A DNA stretch of 25,516 nucleotides from a virus. Lineage: Duplodnaviria > Heunggongvirae > Uroviricota > Caudoviricetes. Under the pieces are notes generated by a model, which was given only the letters and a program-made list of their open reading frames with translations, did no database searches and was not told the DNA's origin. A program made the position numbers and the translations under genes. Below, in pieces: positions 1 to 12,939 of this stretch (positions within the stretch are counted from its first letter, which is position 1; each line of letters begins with the position of its first letter). The stretch is from IMG/VR virus record IMGVR_UViG_2671180439_000001. The stretch is one strand, 5' to 3'.

Positions 1-242
1 AAAATCGTGTTGAGGCCAACGCCCATAATGCGGGCAGTTGCCCGGCATCCAACGCCATTCATGGCCATATCAATGATTTTCTGGTGCGTACCGGGTTGAG
101 AAGCGGTGTAAGTGAACTGCAGTTGCCATGTTTTACGGCAGTGAGAGCAGAGATAGCGCTGATGTCCGGCGGTGCTTTTGCCGTTACGCACCACCCCGTC
201 AGTAGCTGAACAGGAGGGACAGCTGATAGAAACAGAAGCCAC
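1..242 (-). CDS. insA: IS1 InsA (transposition regulator), partial; first ~80 codons, 3' end lies outside the window
   Basis: Minus-strand frame starting with GTG (reverse complement of 240-242) translates to [66 protein letters not shown]..., matching InsA. The 70-aa ORF-track entry 59-271 is a different frame and is not InsA. Confidence 0.85.
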
Positions 243-297
243 TGGAGCACCTCAAAAACACCATCATACACTAAATCAGTAAGTTGGCAGCATCACC
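1..297 (-). mobile_element. IS1: IS1 insertion sequence, left-end portion (about 297 of 768 bp); the element continues beyond the window start
   Basis: Reverse complement of 275-297 is GGTGATGCTGCCAACTTACTGAT, the IS1 terminal inverted repeat. The adjoining bases read as the IS1 insA region. Identification from recall of the IS1 sequence. Confidence 0.9.
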
Positions 298-355
298 GAC
301 AAACCTTTATTTCAAGATTAAAGAAGATAAGCGCAAGGCTGCGAGAGGTGAATAA
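298..355 (+). pseudogene. 3' remnant of a phage-21-type pinholin (S21-like) gene, truncated by the IS1 insertion
   Basis: Frame ending at TAA 353-355 reads [18 protein letters not shown]-stop, resembling the charged C-terminus of the phage 21 pinholin as I recall it. The stop overlaps the endolysin ATG (TAATG). The IS1 end abuts at 297/298. Confidence 0.6.
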
Positions 356-852
356 TGCCTCCATCATTACGAAAAGCCGTTGCTGCTGCTATTGGTGGCG
401 GAGCAATTGCTATAGCATCAGTGTTAATCACTGGCCCAAGTGGTAACGATGGTCTGGAAGGTGTCAGCTACATACCATACAAAGATATTGTTGGTGTATG
501 GACTGTATGTCACGGGCATACAGGAAAAGACATCATGCTCGGTAAAACGTATACCGAAGCAGAGTGCAAAGCCCTCCTGAATAAAGACCTTGCCACTGTC
601 GCCAGACAAATTAACCCGTATATCGAAGTCGATATACCGGAAACAACGCGCGGCGCTCTTTACTCATTCGTTTACAACGTGGGTGCTGGCAATTTCAGAA
701 CATCGACGCTTCTTCGCAAAATAAACCAGGGCGATATCAAAGGCGCATGTGATCAGCTACATCGCTGGACATATGCTGGCGGTAAGCAATGGAAAGGTCT
801 CATGACTCGTCGTGAGATTGAGCGTGAAATCTGTTTGTGGGGTCAGCAATGA
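355..852 (+). CDS. R: SAR (signal-anchor-release) endolysin, phage 21 R-like, T4-lysozyme-like muramidase
   Basis: 165-aa ORF. N-terminal Gly/Ala-rich weakly hydrophobic segment ([20 protein letters not shown]) typical of SAR domains, followed by a lysozyme core; near-identical to my recollection of phage 21 R. Confidence 0.9.
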
Positions 853-1313
853 ACAGAGTAACCGCGATTATCTCCGCTCTGGTTATCTGCATCATCGTCT
901 GCCTGTCATGGGCTGTTAATCATTACCGTGATAACGCCATTACCTACAAAGCCCAGCGCGACAAAAATGCCAGAGAACTGAAGCTGGCGAACGCGGCAAT
1001 TACTGACATGCAGATGCGCCAGCGTGATGTTGCTGCACTGGATGAAAAATACACGAAGGAGTTAGCTAATGCGAAAGCTGAAAATGATGCTCTGCGTGAT
1101 GATGTTGCCGCTGGTCGTCGTCGGTTGCACATCAAAGCAGTCTGTCAGTCAGTGCGTGAAGCCACCACCGCCTCCGGCGTGGATAATGCAGCCTCCCCCC
1201 GACTGGCAGACACCGCTGAACGGGATTATTTCACCCTCCGGGAACGACTGGTAATGATGCAGGCCCAACTTGAAGGTGCTCAGCAATACATAACCGAACA
1301 GTGTTTAAAGTAA
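849..1313 (+). CDS. Rz: Rz i-spanin (inner-membrane spanin subunit)
   Basis: Translation [40 protein letters not shown]... closely matches lambda Rz: N-terminal TM helix plus coiled-coil periplasmic domain. Start chosen at ATG 849 overlapping the R stop (ATGA); the ORF-track start 837 is an upstream in-frame alternative. Confidence 0.9.
1069..1254 (+). CDS. Rz1: Rz1 o-spanin (outer-membrane lipoprotein), embedded in the +1 frame of Rz
   Basis: 61-aa ORF wholly inside Rz. Lipobox LVVVGC followed by a proline-rich stretch ([16 protein letters not shown]); AGGAG Shine-Dalgarno 8 nt upstream; matches lambda Rz1. Confidence 0.85.
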
Positions 1314-1450
1314 AATCTTAACTACAATATGATTCATTTTGATGATTGTTTCATAAGGAACAGTGAAGTAAGATCTAAGAGGAGTTAAATTTTATACAGT
1401 ATAATCATAATATTGCAGCAAGGTGGTTATAATTGAAAGAATATTTAGAT

Positions 1451-2908
1451 ATGAATACATCTCATGTAAGAGTTGTTACTCATATGTGTGGGTTCCTGGT
1501 TTGGCTCTATAGTCTTTCAATGTTGCCACCAATGGTTGTAGCATTGTTTTATAAAGAAAAAAGCCTGTTCGTTTTCTTTATAACTTTCGTTATATTTTTT
1601 TGCATTGGTGGCGGAGCGTGGTATACAACTAAGAAATCTGGCATTCAATTACGTACCCGTGATGGGTTTATTATAATTGTAATGTTTTGGATTTTGTTTT
1701 CTGTTATTAGTGCATTCCCTTTATGGATTGACTCAGAACTTAATTTAACGTTCATTGATGCTCTGTTTGAAGGGGTTTCTGGAATAACAACAACAGGAGC
1801 AACTGTAATTGATGATGTTAGTTCATTACCTCGGGCATATTTGTACTATCGGTCACAGTTAAATTTTATAGGTGGTTTAGGAGTTATTGTTCTGGCGGTT
1901 GCTGTATTGCCATTATTGGGTATTGGTGGTGCAAAGCTTTATCAGTCAGAAATGCCGGGGCCATTTAAGGATGACAAACTCACTCCCCGCCTGGCCGATA
2001 CGTCACGGACACTGTGGATAACTTATTCTTTATTAGGTATTGCTTGTATTGTCTGTTATAGACTTGCAGGAATGCCTTTGTTTGATGCTATTTGTCACGG
2101 GATTTCCACAGTTTCGCTTGGTGGTTTCTCAACTCATAGCGAGAGTATCGGATATTTTAATAACTATTTGGTTGAGCTGGTGGCTGGTTCTTTTTCCCTG
2201 CTATCGGCTTTCAACTTCACTCTTTGGTATATTGTTATTAGCAGGAAAACGATAAAACCTTTAATCAGAGATATTGAACTTCGTTTCTTTCTGTTAATAG
2301 CCTTAGGGGTGATCATTGTTACCTCTTTCCAGGTCTGGCATATAGGTATGTATGACTTGCATGGAAGTTTTATTCATTCGTTTTTTCTTGCCAGCTCCAT
2401 GCTCACTGATAATGGTTTAGCTACGCAGGATTATGCAAACTGGCCCACGCACACGATAGTGTTTTTGCTGTCGTCAAGTTTCTTTGGGGGATGTATAGGT
2501 TCAACTTGTGGTGGAATTAAGTCACTTCGATTTCTTATACTTTTCAAACAAAGCAAACACGAGATAAATCAGCTTTCTCATCCCAGAGCGTTGTTGAGTG
2601 TAAATGTAGGAGGGAAGATAGTTACAGATCGTGTAATGAGGTCTGTATGGAGTTTCTTTTTTCTTTATACTCTCTTCACGGTGTTTTTTATACTGGTGTT
2701 AAATGGTATGGGATATGATTTTCTTACATCATTTGCAACAGTGGCTGCATGTATTAATAATATGGGATTAGGTTTTGGGGCTACTGCATCGTCATTCGGA
2801 GTGCTTAATGACATTGCAAAATATTTAATGTGCATAGCTATGATTCTTGGTCGCCTTGAAATTTATCCTGTTATTATATTGTTTTCAGGTTTTTTTTGGC
2901 GCTCCTAA
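1451..2908 (+). CDS. trkG: TrkH/TrkG-family potassium uptake membrane protein (Rac-prophage-type TrkG)
   Basis: Polytopic membrane protein with repeated pore-loop-like glycine motifs (GITTTGATV, LGGFSTHSE, GLGFGATAS). Strongly AT-rich coding sequence unlike its flanks. Start placed at ATG 1451 (MNTSHVRV..., 485 aa); an in-frame TTG at 1433 with an AAGGTGG Shine-Dalgarno 6 nt upstream is an alternative. Confidence 0.88.
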   Translation: MNTSHVRVVTHMCGFLVWLYSLSMLPPMVVALFYKEKSLFVFFITFVIFFCIGGGAWYTTKKSGIQLRTRDGFIIIVMFWILFSVISAFPLWIDSELNLTFIDALFEGVSGITTTGATVIDDVSSLPRAYLYYRSQLNFIGGLGVIVLAVAVLPLLGIGGAKLYQSEMPGPFKDDKLTPRLADTSRTLWITYSLLGIACIVCYRLAGMPLFDAICHGISTVSLGGFSTHSESIGYFNNYLVELVAGSFSLLSAFNFTLWYIVISRKTIKPLIRDIELRFFLLIALGVIIVTSFQVWHIGMYDLHGSFIHSFFLASSMLTDNGLATQDYANWPTHTIVFLLSSSFFGGCIGSTCGGIKSLRFLILFKQSKHEINQLSHPRALLSVNVGGKIVTDRVMRSVWSFFFLYTLFTVFFILVLNGMGYDFLTSFATVAACINNMGLGFGATASSFGVLNDIAKYLMCIAMILGRLEIYPVIILFSGFFWRS

Positions 2909-3045
2909 TATATGGCTGATTTATAATTGTGAGTTTAATATTATATTGACTCACTCATTGATCCAATACCTAACTTTACCAGCAACACCTCCGCCCCCAG
3001 TAGCACTGGCTGCTGGGGTGCGTTTTATTCATAAAGCAAGGCTGT

Positions 3046-3834
3046 ATGAGCGAGAAATTAAAGATAGTCTATCGCCCATTACAAGAATTGTCACCGTATG
3101 CGCACAACGCCAGGACGCACAGTACTGAGCAGGTGGCACAACTGGTAGAAAGTATTAAGCAATTCGGCTGGACTAATCCGGTGCTGATTGACGAAAAGGG
3201 CGAAATTATTGCGGGTCACGGTCGTGTTATGGCGGCTGAAATGCTCAAAATGGATTCTGTTCCGGTCATTGTTCTGTCTGGCCTGACGGATGATCAGAAA
3301 AAGGCGTACCGCCTGGCAGATAATCGCCTACCGATGAATGCTGGCTGGGATGAAGATCTGTTGCGGATGGAGCTGTCGGACCTAATCAATGCTGATTTTG
3401 ATGTCTCCCTGACAGGCTTCGGCCCGACAGAAATTGATGAACTGTTGACGGATGTTTTGCCCGGTACAGGAAATAAGGAGGAGCCGTATACGACGAAAAT
3501 TGATACGCCTGTTTATGAGCCGTCGGGCGGTAAACCGGATATCAGTGAACTGTACGACGATACGAAAACTCAGGAGCTGATCAGCCGGATACGTTCGGCG
3601 TCCCTTGATCCTGATATTGAGAAATTCCTCCTGTGTGCGGCAGAACGTCACACGGTGTTTAATTTCAGCAGAATTGCGGACTATTACGCTCATGCCCCCG
3701 CTGAAATTCAGTGCCTTTTCGAGGAGTCGGCGCTGGTGATCATTGATTATCAGCAGGCTATTGAAAATGGATTTGTCCGAATGACGCAGCGCATGGTGGC
3801 GATCATGCATAGCGGGGAGGAGGAATATGCGTGA
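3046..3834 (+). CDS. ParB-like nuclease domain protein (ParB/sulfiredoxin N-terminal fold)
   Basis: 262-aa ORF. N-terminal region KLKIVYRPLQELSPYAHNARTHS...IIAGHGRVMAA...VPVIVLSGLTDDQKKAYRLADNRL resembles the ParB N-terminal domain; the C-terminal half is acidic with no recognised domain. Confidence 0.7.
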   Translation: MSEKLKIVYRPLQELSPYAHNARTHSTEQVAQLVESIKQFGWTNPVLIDEKGEIIAGHGRVMAAEMLKMDSVPVIVLSGLTDDQKKAYRLADNRLPMNAGWDEDLLRMELSDLINADFDVSLTGFGPTEIDELLTDVLPGTGNKEEPYTTKIDTPVYEPSGGKPDISELYDDTKTQELISRIRSASLDPDIEKFLLCAAERHTVFNFSRIADYYAHAPAEIQCLFEESALVIIDYQQAIENGFVRMTQRMVAIMHSGEEEYA

Positions 3835-4759
3835 TGATTTTTGCGCCTTTATTCTGACTCACGGGCGACCGGACAAAGTTCTGACTTACCGGACGTTGCG
3901 TCGTGCTGGCTATACCGGGAAAATTTTTATCGTTGTTGATGATGAAGATAAGACACGGCATCAGTACATGGCTGAATTTGGTGAACAGGTGCTGGTATTT
4001 TCCAAAGCAGATATTGCCAGTCGTTTTGACGAAGCCGATAATTTTGGTGACCGCCGCTCAATTTTTTACGCCCGTAATGCCTGTTTCGACCTGGCAAAAC
4101 TGGTCGGGTGTAAATACTTCATTCAGCTCGATGATGATTATCACGAGTTCCAGTTTCGGGTGGATCGCAACTATGACCAGGCCTATTTCCCGATAAGGAA
4201 ACTGGATGCGATCCTTTCTGAAATGCTGGCGTATTACGAATCAATACCCGCGCTTTCCATCGCTATGTCGCAGGGCGGGGATTTTCTTGGTGACAATGGC
4301 GGCCATGCTTCGTGGGTGAAACGCAAGGCAATGAACAGCTTTATCTGTTCGGTTGATCGACCGTTCTCATTCATGGGGCGCATTAACGAGGATGTGAATA
4401 CGTACACGAATCTCGGTCGCCGTGGTGAATTGTTTATGACGATCGGTGCTGTCCAGTTAGGGCAGAAACAGACGCAGAAAAACAGCGGCGGAATGACCGA
4501 GCTGTATCTGGATTCCGGGACCTACGTTAAAAGTTTTTATTCCGTCATGTATGCGCCGTCGTGCGTAAAAATCTCACTGATGGGCGCCAGCCATAAACGC
4601 ATTCACCATCAGGTCACCTGGAACAACGCTGCAGTAAAAATCCTTCACGAAAAATACAGGAAGAAGACACCCTGCATATTAATGGGGGTGACAAATGATT
4701 CCGTATTCGAAAGTCGAGTCTCTGGCAGCGTGCCGGATGACTGCACAACAAATCGCTGA
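3827..4759 (+). CDS. Hypothetical protein with GT-A-like glycosyltransferase signature (two acidic motifs), possible nucleotide-sugar transferase; function unknown
   Basis: 310-aa ORF overlapping the ParB-like stop by 8 nt, GGAGGAGGA Shine-Dalgarno just upstream. Motifs KIFIVVDDEDKT (3932-3949 region) and YFIQLDDDY (LDDD at 4127-4138) resemble the Asp-rich and DxD motifs of GT-A fold (GT2-like) enzymes. No transmembrane segments seen. Confidence reflects the functional guess; the gene itself is well supported. Confidence 0.5.
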   Translation: MRDDFCAFILTHGRPDKVLTYRTLRRAGYTGKIFIVVDDEDKTRHQYMAEFGEQVLVFSKADIASRFDEADNFGDRRSIFYARNACFDLAKLVGCKYFIQLDDDYHEFQFRVDRNYDQAYFPIRKLDAILSEMLAYYESIPALSIAMSQGGDFLGDNGGHASWVKRKAMNSFICSVDRPFSFMGRINEDVNTYTNLGRRGELFMTIGAVQLGQKQTQKNSGGMTELYLDSGTYVKSFYSVMYAPSCVKISLMGASHKRIHHQVTWNNAAVKILHEKYRKKTPCILMGVTNDSVFESRVSGSVPDDCTTNR

Positions 4760-4946
4760 CGTTCTGGATGTTGATCTGAACCGACTGAAAGAAAATCGGG
4801 AAGCAATGACAAATTTTTACGCGTCCATCCGTAAGGGCAGAGCGAAAGGTGAAGCCGAGCTACGGGCGGCATTGTTTAAGCTTGCCAGAAAAGGGGATGC
4901 CTTTGCCCTACGCGAACTACTCAGGGTGGATAAAAATCAGGACTAA
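4695..4946 (+). CDS. Hypothetical small protein, possible helix-turn-helix DNA-binding protein preceding the terminase genes
   Basis: 83-aa ORF ending 4 nt before TerS. Segment MTAQQIADVLDVDLNRLKEN looks HTH-like. Its 5' end overlaps the preceding gene by 65 nt, so the real start may be the internal ATG at 4737. Confidence 0.35.
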   Translation: MIPYSKVESLAACRMTAQQIADVLDVDLNRLKENREAMTNFYASIRKGRAKGEAELRAALFKLARKGDAFALRELLRVDKNQD

Positions 4947-4949
4947 CTG

Positions 4950-6044
4950 ATGAGCAGACCGGACTGGGGGGCGTTGCAGCAGGAGTATATTGCTGAATAC
5001 ACCCGCTCCGGTATATCTCCGGTGGCATGGTGTGAAGCAAGGGGACTGAATTACGCAACAGCCCGTCGTTACATCAAAAAACCTCCGAAAAATGCGCAGA
5101 CAGAAATGCGCAAAACTGCGCAAAAAAGTGCGCAGAAAAAATCTGCGCAGACTGCACAAAAGCGGAACGGAAAATCTCAGGAAAAAAAGCCAGTATCCGA
5201 TGCGTACCTGAATGAGGGCGATGCGGAAGAAATTTCGTTCTGTCCCGATGAATTCGGCGTTTCTGACCAGCAGGCGAAATTCGCAATGCTGGTTGCCCAG
5301 GGGAAAAAACTCGTTGAGGCATATCGCCTGGCAGGATACGAGTCAGAGGGGAATGCGGCCTACGTAACCGCCAGCCAGCTCCTAAGAAATCCTAAGGTTT
5401 TTCGTGCTATCAGCTACTTCCGCAATCAGTACCAGAAACGCTATACCGCAGACCTGGATTTACTGGTGAGTCAGTTGATGGCCATTGTCCAGGCCGACCC
5501 CAATCAGTTGGCACAATTTCGCCGTGTTAACTGCCGTTATTGCTGGGGCGAGAATCATCACTACCAGTGGCGCGATATAGCAGAATTCGATAAGGCAGCG
5601 GCGCAGGCCTCCAGAGATGGCAAACCCGAGCCGGAATATGGTGGCCTTGGCTTTGTTGATAACGCCATACCCAATCCGGACTGCCCGAAGTGCTGCGGTG
5701 AGGGAACGGGGCAGCTTTATATGGCTGATACCACTCTGCTTGATGGGGAAGCGCGGCAATTATATGCAGGGGCAAAGCTCGGAAAATTTGGTGTTGAGAT
5801 CCTGCTGGAGGATAAGGCTGCCGCCCGGCGTGAATTGTTGCGTTTGCTTGCTGCTGGTGGGGCTTTATGTGCAGATAAGCGGCTACAGGAACTGGAAATT
5901 GAACGGCGCAGAATGGAAAACCAGAAGCTGCGCAAAGAGATCGAAACGGTGGAAGATAATGAACATCCCCAACCTGTGGCGATCAATATTAATGTGGTTG
6001 ATGCCAGAGTAAGGAGTGATGAAGATGATCTCTCCGACGCTTAA
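4950..6044 (+). CDS. Terminase small subunit (Terminase_2/P27-like core) with N-terminal HTH and Cys-rich zinc-ribbon-like segment
   Basis: 364-aa ORF directly upstream of and overlapping the large terminase. Region SDQQAKFAMLVAQGKKLVEAYRLAGYESEGNAAYVTASQLLRNPKVFRAI fits the small-terminase pattern; N-terminal HTH-like segment (SPVAWCEARGLNYATARRYI); low-complexity K/A/Q linker; CRYC...CPKCC motif; C-terminal coiled coil. Confidence 0.75.
   Translation: MSRPDWGALQQEYIAEYTRSGISPVAWCEARGLNYATARRYIKKPPKNAQTEMRKTAQKSAQKKSAQTAQKRNGKSQEKKPVSDAYLNEGDAEEISFCPDEFGVSDQQAKFAMLVAQGKKLVEAYRLAGYESEGNAAYVTASQLLRNPKVFRAISYFRNQYQKRYTADLDLLVSQLMAIVQADPNQLAQFRRVNCRYCWGENHHYQWRDIAEFDKAAAQASRDGKPEPEYGGLGFVDNAIPNPDCPKCCGEGTGQLYMADTTLLDGEARQLYAGAKLGKFGVEILLEDKAAARRELLRLLAAGGALCADKRLQELEIERRRMENQKLRKEIETVEDNEHPQPVAININVVDARVRSDEDDLSDA
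5093..5149 (+). repeat. Array of five TGCGCA(G/A)A palindromic-core repeats inside the 5' part of the TerS gene (candidate pac/TerS recognition site)
   Basis: TGCGCA occurs at 5093, 5107, 5117, 5129 and 5144, spaced 10-15 bp, each followed by G/A then A. Confidence 0.5.
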
Positions 6045-7326
6045 TGTGCCTCAGGCGCGATTTCTTTCAATGCCCCACAAATTTAAAGCCTATGTCGCTG
6101 GTTTTGGCTCGGGTAAAACATGGATTGGGTGTGGTGGCATATGCAAGGGGATTTGGGAACATCCTGGTATAAATCAGGGATATTTTGCGCCAACGTATCC
6201 CCAAATTCGCGATATTTTTTACCCTACAGTGGAAGAAGTTGCTGCTGACTGGGGATTGAACGTAAAAATTAATGAGGGAAATAAAGAGGTTCACTTTTAT
6301 TACGGACGCCAGTATCGGGGAACCACTATCTGCAGATCGATGGAGAAGCCGCAAACGATCGTCGGTTTCAAAATTGGTAATGCGTTGGTGGATGAACTGG
6401 ACATTTTGCCGAAGGAAAAAGCCAGAACGGCGTGGCGCAAGATAATTGCGCGTATGCGTTATAAGATTGATGGACTTCGCAACGGTATTGACGTTACAAC
6501 CACGCCGGAAGGATTCAAATTTGTCTACGAGCAGTTTGTTAAAGCCGTGCGTGAAAAAACAGAGCTGGCCTCACTGTATGGTCTGGTGCAGGCATCTACT
6601 TTCGATAATGAAAAGAACCTGCCAGCAGATTACATTCCTTCGCTTCTTGAATCATACCCTCCAGAGCTGATTAAAGCCTATCTTCGAGGACAGTTTACTA
6701 ACCTGACAAGTGGTACTGTTTACCATCAGTTTGACCGGAAACTGAATAATTGCGAAGAAGTGGAGCAGCCAGGGGAGCCGATTTATATTGGGATGGATTT
6801 TAACGTTGGAAAGATGGCGGGAATCGTCCATGTGCTGCGTTTGGGGCTTCCATGTGCGGTAACTGAAATCATCAATGCCTACGATACGCCGGATATGATC
6901 CGCATCATTAAAGAACGCTTCTGGCTGTATGACGGGAATGATTACCGGAAAGTGAGGGAGATTTATATTTATCCAGATGCTTCCGGAGATTCCAGAAAAT
7001 CAAGTAACGCAAGTACGACGGATTTAGCCCAGCTTAAGCAGGCTGGTTTTAACGTTGTGGTGAACAGCTCGAACCCGCCAGTAAAAGATCGCGTTAACTC
7101 AATGAATGCAATGTTCTGCAATGCCAATGGCGAACGTCGCTATAAAGTTAATGTGAAGCGTTGTCCGGTATATGCCGAATCTCTGGAGCAACAGGTCTGG
7201 GATGATAAGGGGGAGCCTGATAAAAAATCAGGCAACGATCACCCGAATGATGCCGGAGGCTATTTCATCGTTAAGCAATTCCCTATTATCAAACCGACCG
7301 GAAGAGTCACATCACTTCGGATTTAA
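6025..7326 (+). CDS. Terminase large subunit (PBSX/Terminase_3-like ATPase-nuclease)
   Basis: Walker-A-like GFGSGKT near the N-terminus, acidic DELD (Walker-B-like), C-terminal nuclease-like region (IYIGMDFNVG). Start placed at ATG 6025, which has an AAGGAG Shine-Dalgarno 8 nt upstream; the ORF track starts at GTG 6016. Confidence 0.85.
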   Translation: MISPTLNVPQARFLSMPHKFKAYVAGFGSGKTWIGCGGICKGIWEHPGINQGYFAPTYPQIRDIFYPTVEEVAADWGLNVKINEGNKEVHFYYGRQYRGTTICRSMEKPQTIVGFKIGNALVDELDILPKEKARTAWRKIIARMRYKIDGLRNGIDVTTTPEGFKFVYEQFVKAVREKTELASLYGLVQASTFDNEKNLPADYIPSLLESYPPELIKAYLRGQFTNLTSGTVYHQFDRKLNNCEEVEQPGEPIYIGMDFNVGKMAGIVHVLRLGLPCAVTEIINAYDTPDMIRIIKERFWLYDGNDYRKVREIYIYPDASGDSRKSSNASTTDLAQLKQAGFNVVVNSSNPPVKDRVNSMNAMFCNANGERRYKVNVKRCPVYAESLEQQVWDDKGEPDKKSGNDHPNDAGGYFIVKQFPIIKPTGRVTSLRI

Positions 7327-7328
7327 TT

Positions 7329-8735
7329 ATGGCTGATATATCAACACCCAACCTCGACTATAACGATATGCTGGAGGCGTGGGATATTAACGACGCACTG
7401 ATGGGCGGTACGCTTGAAATGCGCAGGCAGGGGGAAAATTATCTCCCAAAATGGCCTAACGAAGATGAAGACGCTTATAAAAAACGCCTGTCTGTGGCTA
7501 CGCTACTTCCTGTGTATGAAGAAAGCATTAAGCAAAATATTGGACGCATATTTGCAGAGCCGACAGTATTGAGTGAGGAAACGCCGGAAAAAATCAGGGA
7601 ATATGCAGAAAATATCGACATGGAGGGGAGCCGACTGGATGTGTGGGCGCAGCAATTTTTCAGCCTCGCATTTCAGTATGGTGTGGCACATGCGCTGGTG
7701 GACTATCCACGAACGGATATGAAGGAGATCCGGACAAAAGCCGATGAAAATGCGGCTGGTGGTCGCCCATACGTTACGATGCTGAATCCACGCCAGGTTA
7801 TTGGATGGAAATCGAAAGTTGAAAAAGGGAAAGTTGTTCTTACTGATTTGCGTATAAAAGAGGTCATCATTGTTGATGGTGATGATTTCGGGCAGAAGAA
7901 GGTGGAGCAGATCCGCCATATTATGCCCCGTTGCGTTGAAATTTATCGACGCAGCGAAGGTACTAATGGCGAATCTGTCTGGACGCTTCACGAGTCATGG
8001 AATACCAGCCGTGATGATATTCCTCTGGTAACACTGTATACGAAGAAAACAGGGTTTATGCGTGGTACACCGCCATTGCTTAATCTTGGCTTGCTGAATA
8101 TCAAGCACTGGCAAAGCCAGAGCGAGCAGGACAATATTCTTCATGTTGCCCGCGTCCCATTGCTGGTGGCCTACGGGCTGGACAGGAATGAAGAACTGAC
8201 GGTTGGTGCATCCACCGCTACGATTTTTGAGGACAGAACAAAAAATGGCCTCGAATATGTTGAACATAGTGGGGCAGCGATAGAATCTGGCGAAACATCA
8301 CTGGAGAAGCTGGAAAATCAAATGCGTCATGCCGGCGCTAAACTTCTGCGGGCTGAAAATACATCCACCAAATCTGTTGATCAGACTAATGAAGAGCGGA
8401 TGCAGGAAAACTCGCCGCTTTATACAATGGCGAACTCCCTCGAAGATGCCCTCGATAATATTCTCCAGATAATGGCGGAATGGATCGGAGAGAGTTGCGG
8501 CGGCAATGTGGATGTGCGCACTGAACTGGATGTATCTGCCCAGGTGTTTGACTCATCCTCCGCGCTGGCTGTTCAGTCATTGCGTCAGGGCGGTGATATA
8601 CGTCAGATTGATGCGGTTCGGGTGTTGCAGGCGTTGAAATTTATCGATCAGGATTCCCGTCCAGAGGAAGTGATCGATGAATTAAACAATCAGAGTGTAA
8701 TGCTGATGGAAATCAATGATGCAAACCGTGAATGA
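7329..8735 (+). CDS. Portal protein (putative)
   Basis: 468-aa ORF immediately after the large terminase (2-nt gap) and before the head morphogenesis gene. Call rests on size and conserved gene order, not on a recognised motif. Confidence 0.7.
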   Translation: MADISTPNLDYNDMLEAWDINDALMGGTLEMRRQGENYLPKWPNEDEDAYKKRLSVATLLPVYEESIKQNIGRIFAEPTVLSEETPEKIREYAENIDMEGSRLDVWAQQFFSLAFQYGVAHALVDYPRTDMKEIRTKADENAAGGRPYVTMLNPRQVIGWKSKVEKGKVVLTDLRIKEVIIVDGDDFGQKKVEQIRHIMPRCVEIYRRSEGTNGESVWTLHESWNTSRDDIPLVTLYTKKTGFMRGTPPLLNLGLLNIKHWQSQSEQDNILHVARVPLLVAYGLDRNEELTVGASTATIFEDRTKNGLEYVEHSGAAIESGETSLEKLENQMRHAGAKLLRAENTSTKSVDQTNEERMQENSPLYTMANSLEDALDNILQIMAEWIGESCGGNVDVRTELDVSAQVFDSSSALAVQSLRQGGDIRQIDAVRVLQALKFIDQDSRPEEVIDELNNQSVMLMEINDANRE

Positions 8736-9831
8736 ACGGCTGCGTGATGAATCAATTGCTCATGCAGTCTGGATATCTCGCTATAGCACTGGTGTGGCTG
8801 CCAGAATGGTGAAAACACTGAATGACAGCGATGCGGAGCTTACAGCTCGCCTGTTGGTGGCACTGGACAGCCTCGATCCAAGTAGTTTCACCGTTACGCG
8901 CCTGGAGTCACTTCTGGCGAGTGTCAGAGAGGTTAACCGCGCTGCTATTAACAGCATGTTTACCAGTCTCTCCGGAGAGCTGAACGAGCTGGCAGTTTAT
9001 GAGGCTGGTTATCAGTTAAGTCTGTTTGATTCTCTGCTACCTGATTTTGTTGCTGATGTTCATCCTCTGGTTGGTATCTCACCTGATGCACTTTATGCTG
9101 CTGCAATGGCGCGACCATTCCAGGGACGACTGCTCAGTGAGTGGGCCTCAGATCTTGAGGCGGATCGGCTCAGACGCATAACAAATACGGTGCGTCAGGG
9201 TTTTTTGTTGGGGGATACCAATGAGCAGATCGCAAGAAAAATTCGGGGACATGTCAGTAAGGGATTTCAGGATGGTGCATTGCAGATGAGTCGGGCTAAT
9301 GCGGCCAGCATTGCAAAAACAGCGGTTGGACATCTTGCTGCTACTGCCCGTGAGAGTTTTGCCAGCGCGAATAATGATTTGATTAAGGGTAAGCAATGGT
9401 TATCAACGCTTGATAATCGTACTACGCCACAATGTCGAATCAGGGATCGCCTCAAATATACGCTGGATAATAAACCTGTAGGTCACAGCGTGCCTTATTT
9501 ACAGGGGCCGGGGAAAATTCATTTCTGCTGTCGCTCAACGGAAACGTTCATTCTGAAATCAGCGAAGGAACTGGGTATTGATGTTCGTGATATTTCCCCG
9601 GCTGAGCGGGCCAGCATGGATGGCGTGGTGGCCGGAGATACAACCTACAGGGAATGGTTTTTGCGTCAGCCTTACACCAGACAAAAACAGATTGTGGGGG
9701 AAACCCGGGCAAAGCTGATTCGGGATGGCGGTATGTCGCCAGATGAATTTTACACCGATAAAGGCGAATGGCTGACGCTGAAGCAACTCCGTGAGCGTGA
9801 TGCACAGGTATTCAGAAAAGCAGGGATTTAA
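8716..9831 (+). CDS. Head morphogenesis protein (SPP1 gp7 / Mu F-like minor head protein)
   Basis: 371-aa ORF overlapping the portal stop. Contains the TTPQCR motif region typical of gp7/F-like minor head proteins, in the expected position after the portal. Confidence 0.72.
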   Translation: MMQTVNERLRDESIAHAVWISRYSTGVAARMVKTLNDSDAELTARLLVALDSLDPSSFTVTRLESLLASVREVNRAAINSMFTSLSGELNELAVYEAGYQLSLFDSLLPDFVADVHPLVGISPDALYAAAMARPFQGRLLSEWASDLEADRLRRITNTVRQGFLLGDTNEQIARKIRGHVSKGFQDGALQMSRANAASIAKTAVGHLAATARESFASANNDLIKGKQWLSTLDNRTTPQCRIRDRLKYTLDNKPVGHSVPYLQGPGKIHFCCRSTETFILKSAKELGIDVRDISPAERASMDGVVAGDTTYREWFLRQPYTRQKQIVGETRAKLIRDGGMSPDEFYTDKGEWLTLKQLRERDAQVFRKAGI

Positions 9832-9850
9832 ATAAATCATTTATTACAAC

Positions 9851-9877
9851 AGGCTACCTTCGGGTGGCCTTTTTTAT
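9851..9877 (+). terminator. Rho-independent terminator after the head morphogenesis gene
   Basis: AGGCTACC-TTCG-GGTGGCCT: 8-bp stem with one G-U pair, tetraloop, then TTTTTTATT. Confidence 0.6.
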
Positions 9878-9935
9878 TGCTGCGATCCGGATGGTGAGCA
9901 GCGTAACTGTCGGAAGACTTAAACCAGGTACTAAT

Positions 9936-10700
9936 ATGAAACTGAAAACTGTCGAGATTAACGGAAAACAATACGCAGAAATTGATACTGCTGGCCTGCC
10001 AGTTTATGTGCACGACGATGGTAAAGAAATCGGCTTCGATGCACCGCTGGCGATAAAAAAAATTACAGAGCTTAATGGCGAGGCAAAAAATCATCGCCTG
10101 GCTAAAGAAGCTGCAGAGGAAAAACTGGCTAAGTTTGCCGCTATCGAAGACCCGAAGAAGGCGATCGAGGCACTGGAAATGCTGTCAAAAATCGACCAGA
10201 AAAAGCTGATCGATGCGGGACAGGTTGACCAGGTTAAGGCAGAAATTACGAAAAATTTTCAGCAGCAATTAGATGAAGAAAAGCAACGCTCTCAGATGCT
10301 GGAGACGCAACTTTACGATTCTATGATTGGCGGTAGTTTTGCGGGTTCAAAATATATTGCCGATAAAATTGCGATCCCGGCAGATTTATTACAAGCCCGC
10401 TTCGGGCAGGCATTCAAAGTGGAAGAAGGGAAGATCGTTGCTTATGACGCTTCCGGCAACAAAATTTATTCCCGCGCGAAGCCTGGCGAACTGGCGCAGT
10501 TTGATGAGGCGCTGGAGTTCCTCGTCGAAAATTACCCTCAGAAAGACTACATCCTGAAAGCCAGTGGCAACAATGGCGGCGGCTCCCGTCCGACACAGCA
10601 TGATATTGGTCAGAAAACGATGAAACGCTCTGCTTTTGATGCACTGGATGTTGCAGGTAAGCAAAACGCATTGAAAGACGGTATCACAATTGTTGATTAA
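9936..10700 (+). CDS. Scaffolding protein (putative)
   Basis: Start taken at ATG 9936 (MKLKTVEING...), downstream of the terminator; the ORF-track start 9864 overlaps the terminator hairpin. Acidic, helical, K/E/A-rich protein located between the head morphogenesis and capsid genes. Confidence 0.6.
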   Translation: MKLKTVEINGKQYAEIDTAGLPVYVHDDGKEIGFDAPLAIKKITELNGEAKNHRLAKEAAEEKLAKFAAIEDPKKAIEALEMLSKIDQKKLIDAGQVDQVKAEITKNFQQQLDEEKQRSQMLETQLYDSMIGGSFAGSKYIADKIAIPADLLQARFGQAFKVEEGKIVAYDASGNKIYSRAKPGELAQFDEALEFLVENYPQKDYILKASGNNGGGSRPTQHDIGQKTMKRSAFDALDVAGKQNALKDGITIVD

Positions 10701-10798
10701 CACATTTGTCAGCTTCCGGATGGGAGCTGGTGTCAGGGCTGGATAGCTCATTACTCCATCTATTCACAATTACGCAAATTTTTAAGGAATATTTAATT

Positions 10799-11938
10799 AT
10801 GGCTGGAAATACCCTGACCGGGTTGATCCCGACTATTTACACCGCCCTGGATGTTGTATCCCGTGAGCAGGTAGGTTTTATCCCTGCGGTAGCAAAAAAC
10901 GCAAAAGCTGACGCCGCAGCAAAAGATCAGACGGTAACCGCGTCAGTTGCGCCTGAGGCGAAAACCGAAGATATCGTACCGGGGCCGTCAGCTCCGAATA
11001 CCGGTGATCAAAATATTGGCACTGTTGATGTAAAAATTACTAAATCCAAAATGGCGCCGGTTAAATGGAATGGTGAAGAACAACTGGCTCTTGGCCCTTC
11101 AGGGACTTACAACACCATTCTGGCTGATCAGTTCAAGCAGGCTTTTCGCGCCCTTGCAAACGAGGTTGAGGCTGATCTTGGTGCGTTGTATTTCGGTGCT
11201 TCCCGCGCCGTGGGAACCGCAGGGACAACGCCGTTTGGTGTTAAAGATGATCTTTCTGATGCTGCTCTGGCTCGTCAGGTTCTGGAGGATAACGGCGCAC
11301 CGACAACAGATCTGCAGATGGTGCTTGGCTCCAGTGCCATTGCTAATTTGCGCGGAAAACAGTCTGTACTGTTTAAAGTGAATGAATCCGGCACTGAACA
11401 GCTACTGCGTGAGGGCGTGTTGGGGCGTCTGGAGGGATTCAATATTCACAGTTCGGCAGGTGTAAAACGAGCGCCAAAGGTTGCTGCAACTGGTTATCTC
11501 GTGAATGGCGAGAAAAAAGAAGGCGATGTTCTTATTTCCATTGATACTGGTTCGGGGAGTATTTCTGCAGGTCAGATTGTTACGTTCGCTGGCGATCCGA
11601 ATCAGTATGTTGTGGCAGCAGCGACCAGCAATCTGATTACTCTTGCAGCGCCCGGACTGCGTCAGGATCTGGCCGATGATACTGCAATCACAGTTGTTGG
11701 CTCCTTTACTGCAAATATGGCGTTTGATCGCAACGCGTTTCTGCTGGCATCCCGTACTCCGGCAATGCCGGAAGGTGGCGATAATGCTGATGATGTAATG
11801 AATGTTACGGACCCGATTTCAGGGATTACGTTCCAGATTGCACTGTATCGTCAGTATCGCCAGGTGCGCTATGAAGTTGGACTGGCATGGGGTGTTTCAT
11901 CAGTGAAGCCGGCACATGGTTGTCTGATTCTTGGTTAA
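10799..11938 (+). CDS. Major capsid protein (putative)
   Basis: 379-aa ORF from ATG 10799 with an AAGGA Shine-Dalgarno; follows the scaffold gene and is followed by a terminator. The ORF-track TTG start at 10706 is unlikely. Assignment by position and size. Confidence 0.68.
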   Translation: MAGNTLTGLIPTIYTALDVVSREQVGFIPAVAKNAKADAAAKDQTVTASVAPEAKTEDIVPGPSAPNTGDQNIGTVDVKITKSKMAPVKWNGEEQLALGPSGTYNTILADQFKQAFRALANEVEADLGALYFGASRAVGTAGTTPFGVKDDLSDAALARQVLEDNGAPTTDLQMVLGSSAIANLRGKQSVLFKVNESGTEQLLREGVLGRLEGFNIHSSAGVKRAPKVAATGYLVNGEKKEGDVLISIDTGSGSISAGQIVTFAGDPNQYVVAAATSNLITLAAPGLRQDLADDTAITVVGSFTANMAFDRNAFLLASRTPAMPEGGDNADDVMNVTDPISGITFQIALYRQYRQVRYEVGLAWGVSSVKPAHGCLILG

Positions 11939-12160: not shown

Positions 12161-12556
12161 ATGATCACTTACGTGACCTGTGATGACGTTGATAATGCGT
12201 TTGGGAACGCCTGGACGAGTGAGAACGCTAAAAATAAAGCTGTTTTAATGGCTAATGCCTGGCTTAATGGCTTCAGCCTGAAAATTAACCCATCCCGTAT
12301 TCCGGAAGAGGTAAAACTTGCGGGAGCATATGCAGCCAGAATTGCCTCTGTCGGTAAGTTGTTTCAGCAGAAAAATGATTCAGGCGTTGTTATCAGTAAA
12401 GCCGTGTCGGCTGACGGGGTCAGTGTATCGAAATCATTTGCTGAATTGCCAGCAAACAGCACTGCATTGCTTGAACCCGATTTACAGCTTGCGATAGCAC
12501 TGCTGAAACCGTACGGACTTAGTCGCTCACAAGTCAGGGTTGTGAGGGGGGGATGA
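12161..12556 (+). CDS. Putative head-tail connector / head completion protein
   Basis: 131-aa ORF, first of four tightly packed ~130-aa genes between the capsid and major tail genes. Assignment by position only. Confidence 0.4.
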   Translation: MITYVTCDDVDNAFGNAWTSENAKNKAVLMANAWLNGFSLKINPSRIPEEVKLAGAYAARIASVGKLFQQKNDSGVVISKAVSADGVSVSKSFAELPANSTALLEPDLQLAIALLKPYGLSRSQVRVVRGG

Positions 12557-12939
12557 TGGGGGTTCGTGAAGAGATTCAGTCAGAGGTTGCCGCTGCTTTT
12601 GATGAGGATTTAGCAGACGTCGTGAGTGATTTTTCTGGTTCTTACGTTACGTACCGGAACTGGGATCCTGTGACTGAAACTGGCGGTGAATCCACAGCAA
12701 CCTATACCGGGCGAGGCGTGTTGACGCGTTATAAGCTGGGCAGAATTGATGGGATTAATATTTTGCATGGTGACCTTAAATTAACTGCTCTGGTATGCGA
12801 GGTTACGGATAAACCCGCTGTCGGTCATATTATTGAGATTTATGATTCTGTATCAAGGCAGTTGCAACGATACGAGGTAATTACAGCGAGTGTAGATCCT
12901 TCCGCATCAGTTTACTCAATCCAGTTAAGGAGAGCGTAA
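12553..12939 (+). CDS. Putative head-tail adaptor / head closure protein
   Basis: 128-aa ORF overlapping the previous stop by 4 nt (ATGA). Assignment by position only. Confidence 0.4.
   Translation: MMGVREEIQSEVAAAFDEDLADVVSDFSGSYVTYRNWDPVTETGGESTATYTGRGVLTRYKLGRIDGINILHGDLKLTALVCEVTDKPAVGHIIEIYDSVSRQLQRYEVITASVDPSASVYSIQLRRA

Follow-up and report, generated by a model that had tools for sequence, protein, structure and literature searches.

Lysis cassettes of the phage 21 type are known both from phage 21 itself, where the gene order is S21-R21-Rz-Rz1, and from the DLP12 prophage, where the corresponding genes are essD-rrrD-rzpD-rzoD. Pinholins of this type (class II holins) time lysis by opening nanometre-scale holes in the membrane; the membrane becomes depolarised, and no endolysins other than SAR endolysins are released. 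The late transcripts of lambdoid phages run from pR', are antiterminated by Q, and are expected to cross an IS1 element. Lambdoid Escherichia coli prophages that have been disrupted by insertion sequences (IS), or have decayed, provide the second point of comparison; in these, a host IS inactivates a prophage gene as one step of decay. In K-12, IS5 has inserted into lomR of Rac and into nmpC of DLP12. A deletion mediated by IS1A has been described for CP4-6 (PMC5009759).

The locus analyzed here has the same gene order as the phage 21 and DLP12 cassettes, with the same TAATG and ATGA overlaps between neighboring genes. It differs from them in that IS1 interrupts the pinholin ORF after codon 56, in its location in a Rac-type prophage, and in that trkG follows the cassette. 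As in the IS-decayed prophages, a host element has inactivated a prophage gene, but here there is a single, very recent insertion and the late region is otherwise collinear.

The window, by which we mean the whole stretch of DNA analyzed, is an entire draft contig of 25,516 nt, which is exactly the length of the longest contig on record for its tape-measure, J, and Lom proteins. Its first 297 bp belong to IS1, and it stops 71 nt past lom. Both ends are assembly breaks induced by repeats, the right one presumably at the repeated tail-fibre region. Past the lysis cassette, the window encoded trkG, a ParB-like gene, a TAGT-domain gene, both terminase subunits, portal, head, connector and tail genes, J, and lom. 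The genes downstream of the cassette were all open and had the expected family matches. This 25-kb late region was collinear, in one piece, with complete E. coli chromosomes (at least 80% of it was present in 684 of 5426 genomes), and in strain PSJ-07 the element was located at the Rac locus, adjoining ompN and ydbK.

Several features of the surrounding prophage deserve description in their own right. The cargo gene trkG, which encodes a K+ transporter (window positions 1451-2908), lay immediately downstream of Rz/Rz1, ahead of the packaging genes, as it does in the Rac prophage of K-12, which, unlike the prophage here, lacks a full lysis cassette and structural genes. Between trkG and the small terminase gene, at 3046-4759, a ParB_N gene (262 aa, ynaK-like) overlapped a gene with a PF20691 match (310 aa, 5.8e-36). 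PF20691 is the 'TET-associated glycosyltransferase' domain, while the UniRef name of the 310-aa protein is 'GREB1-related', and no TET/JBP dioxygenase was visible in the window. This gene pair may serve Rac-type phages as a module for DNA modification or anti-restriction. Additionally, the protein encoded at 12553-12939 (L008 24259-24642) was a head-closure protein (PHROG 161, 3.8e-28) with a RefSeq homologue named 'glutamate 5-kinase', a name that is likely a misannotation.

Table 1. Features at the IS1 junction and in the lysis cassette, in window coordinates.
Feature	Position	Strand	Basis
IS1, left portion (297 bp), cut by the contig start	1..297	-	Sequence reading; InsA domains
insA, 5' end (80 codons from a GTG at 242; incomplete at the contig edge)	3..242	-	Pfam
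IS1 left terminal inverted repeat (IRL), 23 bp	275..297	-	Direct reading; reverse complement is GGTGATGCTGCCAACTTACTGAT
Right copy of the inferred 9-bp target-site duplication, GACAAACCT	298..306	+	Single GACAAACCT in the intact allele, L001 9944-9952
Phage-21-type (essD-like) pinholin, 3' remnant, codons T54-E71 and TAA (353-355)	299..355	+	Reading; identity to the intact allele
SAR endolysin, intact, 165 aa, R21/RrrD-like	355..852	+	PF00959 3e-45; PDB matches
Rz i-spanin, intact, 154 aa	849..1313	+	PF03245 5.8e-53; N-terminal hydrophobic segment
Rz1 o-spanin, intact, 61 aa, lipobox LVVVGC	1069..1254	+	PF06085 2e-19

The endolysin gene and those following it in the cassette (Table 1) closely matched the described systems. 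The endolysin aligned over its full length with RrrD (PDB 4zpu, 4.8e-110) and with the phage 21 lysozyme (3hde, 1.8e-109), was 97-98% identical to RrrD and R21, and had its own Shine-Dalgarno sequence, GAGAGGTG, at 342-349. The E-X8-D-X5-T triad of the GH24 SAR endolysins (E35, D44, T50) and a Gly/Ala-rich N-terminus, as is typical of SAR domains, were read directly from the protein. The start of Rz overlapped the endolysin stop (ATGA), and the two spanin components had the typical arrangement, that is, an Rz with an N-terminal transmembrane domain (TMD) and an Rz1 lipoprotein embedded within Rz in the +1 frame. Apart from Rz/Rz1, no free-standing small membrane ORF that could represent a second holin was found in the window, where all other genes had non-holin assignments, and the part of the late operon that it covers held no other holin-like gene. 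The Pfam and PDB matches, together with the split ORF, bear out the initial annotation, made from this DNA alone, in its view that the holin is disrupted while the SAR endolysin and spanins are intact.

The frame that precedes the endolysin comprised 18 codons without a start codon, and its TAA shares the final A with the endolysin ATG (355-357). Relatives were sought by exact look-up of the endolysin protein, which led to several contigs from E. coli that share the gene neighborhood. On L001-L004 there was an intact 71-aa PF04971 ('Bacteriophage P21 holin S') gene whose stop overlaps the endolysin start in the same way (TAATG). This gene spans 216 nt (L001 9786-10001, with L001 base 9944 as the counterpart of window base 298), and its product matched profile positions 1-63 of 64 of PF04971 (4.8e-35). 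Direct reading of the intact allele recovered the dual-start motif Met1-Lys-Ser-Met4, which with the PF04971 match extends the likeness to the phage 21 and DLP12 cassettes, and two TMDs, the first of which was weakly hydrophobic and SAR-like.

The window was 100% identical to L001-L003, which are sister Rac-type prophages, from 298 to 10852 (~10.5 kb), and the remnant therefore corresponds to codons T54-E71 of the intact-holin gene. The 1-nt indel that alignment of the window with L001-L004 seemed to show was an artefact at the IS1 junction, where the aligner had extended three bases into IS1, and there is no frameshift in the lysis genes. The frame beginning at 299 had initially been taken for the 3' end of a pinholin gene overlapping the endolysin start, and this identification stands, the remnant being identical to the C-terminus of the intact 'phage P21 holin S' protein. 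The accompanying statement that only the last 18 codons were left holds for the window contig but not overall, since the 5' 56 codons survive beyond IS1 on another contig. Judged from family membership and from the 100% identity of the remnant to the intact 3' end, the interrupted gene is a disrupted member of the S-type pinholin family, whose ORF is incomplete in this genome because IS1 splits it, with only codons 54-71 located in the window.

Upstream of the remnant, the IS1 fragment had at least 99% identity with copies carried by thousands of E. coli genomes, and its insA pointed away from the lysis cassette. In a Pfam search, the 80 N-terminal residues of InsA matched PF03811 (Zn_ribbon_InsA, 1.3e-21) and PF12759 (HTH_Tnp_IS1, 2e-24), and the region encoding this zinc ribbon and helix-turn-helix (HTH) adjoined the left repeat. 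The terminal repeats of the IS1 family are imperfect and ~23 bp long (GGTGATGCTGCCAACTTA at the left end, GGTAATGACTCCAACTTA at the right end). The left one was read in the DNA and ended at 297, where the initial annotation had placed it, while the right one is known only through translation, as the VMTPTY-stop tail of the fusion protein P0001 described below. With an identical terminal inverted repeat, the InsA zinc ribbon and HTH, an inferred 9-bp duplication, and a locally AT-rich target, the element resembled IS1 of E. coli and Shigella, and no unusual feature was found in the 297 of 768 bp that are visible.

A promoter scan of this region returned a promoter-like site on the minus strand (290->263, CTGCCA-16-TATGAT), which fits the inward insA promoter, and no plus-strand site near the junction that might serve as an outward IS1 hybrid promoter. 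A candidate for the latter that was picked by eye, TTGGCA (284-289) followed after 16 nt by TTTATT (306-311), was rejected, as its second hexamer lacks A at position 2 and the scan gave no plus-strand site there.

With the window beginning inside IS1, and the other ~470 bp of the element lying outside it, the second IS1 junction could not be read there. A full 768-bp IS1 also has insB' and the A6C -1 frameshift site. The product of that left junction was instead predicted beforehand, assuming a simple insertion in the observed orientation and the known IS1 right end, and duplications of 8, 9, and 10 bp were compared. A 9-bp duplication (GACAAACCT) predicted holin residues 1-56 followed by VMTPTY-stop (G GTA ATG ACT CCA ACT TAT TGA), giving MKSMDK...LTYLTNL+VMTPTY. 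Exact look-up recovered precisely this 62-aa protein, P0001 (WP_053287137.1 = MFO9976918.1), on four contigs, none longer than 3816 nt, whereas the products of the 8-bp (ending ...LTNR) and 10-bp (with a 26-residue tail) duplications were both absent on exact protein look-up. We infer the left copy of GACAAACCT from this exact fusion protein, that is, at the protein level and not from a contiguous read.

The pinholin 5' fragment abutting the other end of IS1 also co-occurred with rare proteins of the window contig. Specifically, the TAGT-domain protein and small terminase of the window are WP_053287080.1 and WP_053287081.1, its tape-measure protein is WP_053287087.1, J is WP_053287090.1 (= MFO9976351.1), and Lom is WP_053287091.1, with the tape-measure, J, and Lom proteins all being rare variants. 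The neighboring WP numbers, the common MFO99763xx-99769xx series, and a common UniParc batch indicate that both junctions occur in the same genomes, and the 8-9-bp target duplication typical of the family is thereby seen indirectly, at the protein level and through accession co-occurrence. In L001, another IS was located 3277 nt upstream of the target site, a spacing that fits a contig of ~3.8 kb between two repeats on the P0001 side. The target together with 20 bp on each side had a GC content of 39%, as opposed to 48% for the gene. Both the 9-bp duplication and the AT-rich target are consistent with the known behavior of IS1, which generates target duplications of 8-9 bp and prefers AT-rich targets (PMC5009759).

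A different history was considered, in which an IS1 adjacent deletion, or recombination between two IS1 copies, removed the upstream portion of the pinholin gene, perhaps along with Q and pR', leaving a promoterless cassette in a defective prophage. Only one junction is present in the window, in other E. coli genomes IS1 adjoins essD-type cassettes and has unrelated DNA beyond it (as in MS6198, with an HTH gene and not Q), and IS-mediated deletions in prophages are common (PMC5009759), all of which would agree with such an event. Yet the exact reciprocal product exists, with the 9-bp duplicated codons and the IS1 right-end tail, in an accession series shared with the contig, and neither a deletion nor a recombination of two IS1 copies would leave a matching target duplication. 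We regard this history as highly unlikely.

Another explanation, that the IS1-holin junction is an assembly chimera, draws on the position of the IS1 segment at the extreme end of a draft contig, where misjoins arise. However, a metagenome scaffold from an independent assembly (L005) had the identical junction, the SKESA-type contig L006 began 3 nt past it, several other assemblies broke within 3 nt of the junction, and the reciprocal junction was present as a protein on four contigs, such that a chimera can for practical purposes be dismissed.

The interpretation that we favor with high confidence is that one simple IS1 insertion with a 9-bp duplication recently split the pinholin gene of a trkG-carrying Rac-type E. 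coli prophage and spared the endolysin and spanins. In this scenario, a single IS1 would have transposed by simple insertion into codons 53-56 of the 71-aa pinholin (an S21/essD homologue), encoded by the first gene of the lysis cassette, and would have duplicated the 9 bp GACAAACCT. Upstream of the element this would leave codons 1-56 plus six IS1-encoded residues (VMTPTY-stop), and downstream the last 18 codons without a start, with the SAR endolysin, Rz/Rz1, and morphogenesis genes untouched and the endolysin retaining its own ribosome-binding site. Upon induction, Q-antiterminated late transcription would presumably continue across the 768-bp IS1, and lysis would rely on slow spontaneous release of the SAR endolysin, making it late and asynchronous, not absent. 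The event itself would be recent, neutral or mildly deleterious for the phage, and limited to a small clone.

The consequence for the pinholin depends on where the 62-aa product ends. TMD1 and the larger part of TMD2 are retained, but Y57-F58-K59 are missing, as is the charged tail. Positions of the intact allele correspond to the S21-68 numbering of a mutational study (bioRxiv 10.1101/2021.04.20.440580), in which C-terminal truncation was tolerated down to K56 only, and the residue at position 56 had to be Lys or Arg, which anchors TMD2. In that numbering, the pinholin part of the 62-aa product stops at L53 and is followed by the uncharged VMTPTY. It would thus be non-functional for want of the required Lys anchor, and from this comparison the truncated pinholin is probably null.

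We also weighed whether the 62-aa protein retains holin activity, or acts as a dominant-negative antiholin, in which case the cassette would be rewired and not broken. The presence of TMD1 and nearly all of TMD2, the PF04971 match of the truncated product (8.3e-27), and the finding that S21 does not need most of its C-terminal tail (bioRxiv 10.1101/2021.04.20.440580) are compatible with residual activity. The product nevertheless ends three residues short of the K56 limit in the same study, on a tail without positive charge, and we consider retained function very unlikely.

Loss of the pinholin is not the same as loss of lysis. SAR endolysins are released spontaneously in the absence of a holin, with lysis that is later and broader in time (PMC9239132, PMC12642591). 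Given this stochastic escape, the phenotype would likely be a lysis-timing defect and not an immobilised prophage, and delayed, asynchronous lysis is what we would likely expect upon induction. The 'immobilised cryptic prophage' that had been put forward as one outcome is thus not implied, as SAR endolysins leak and lyse the cell without a holin, only later (PMC9239132, PMC12642591).

The insertion was rare, being found in a handful of draft assemblies and in none of 5426 complete E. coli genomes, which also had no IS1 within the holin ORF at this site. An exact 28-mer spanning the right junction had no match in IMG/VR, the GTDB representative genomes, or the JGI metagenomes. Apparent 'full-coverage' matches in complete genomes all consisted of two separate pieces, with IS1 located 180-450 nt further upstream than in the window, which places it 20-290 nt before the holin ATG. 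The identity of the flanks to IS1-free relatives over 10.5 kb points to a very young insertion.

Elsewhere, in approximately 29 complete E. coli genomes, an IS1 end oriented as in the window lay 20-290 nt before the start of an essD/essQ-type pinholin gene, at no fewer than 10 different positions. In MS6198, an IS1 variant ended 27 nt before the essD ATG (cf. L007 1480-1580), and the HTH gene lay beyond it in place of Q, an arrangement that suggests an IS1-associated deletion beside lysis cassettes. Random insertion would be expected, on a rough estimate, to give a few sites, and any enrichment of IS1 near pinholins would therefore be modest.

These observations bear on whether the insertion is adaptive, that is, a 'domestication' selected for blunting prophage-induced lysis while trkG and other cargo are kept. 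The IS1 ends near essD/essQ-type holins hint at recurrence. In the opposite direction, the 100% identity of the flanks to IS1-free relatives makes the event very young, it is confined to the few assemblies noted above, lysis by a SAR endolysin is not prevented by a holin null (PMC9239132), and IS1 favors AT-rich, dispensable DNA in any case (PMC5009759). Selection of this kind appears unlikely for the insertion seen here. The initial annotation had gone further in calling the locus a clear example of domestication, which is not sustained for so recent an insertion in so few assemblies with no sign of selection.

A broader version of the adaptive argument holds that IS1 in or near essD-type pinholins is a recurrent, selected taming of lambdoid prophages, of which the window is a fresh case, and that the 62-aa fusion maybe acts as an antiholin on co-resident prophages. 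We would give this little credence, but if it were true there would be a recurrent IS1 route by which lysis is slowed or desynchronised while cargo such as trkG is kept, with the window caught before further decay.

On the simple-insertion interpretation, this is an ordinary IS1 insertion in a cassette of the phage 21/DLP12 type; its anatomy is not unusual, and it is a well-understood kind of prophage mutation. The main value of the finding lies in annotation, in that the contig break is explained and WP_053287137.1 is exposed as a truncated IS1 read-through product. This protein appears in RefSeq as a 'class II holin family protein', and by its sequence it joins residues 1-56 of the holin to six that are read from the right inverted repeat of IS1, making the RefSeq holin label an annotation artefact of the IS1 insertion and no true holin variant. 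Beyond annotation, the prophages with and without the pinholin, identical over the comparable 10.5 kb, form a natural near-isogenic pair that could be used for measuring the contribution of the pinholin to the fitness of phages with SAR endolysins.
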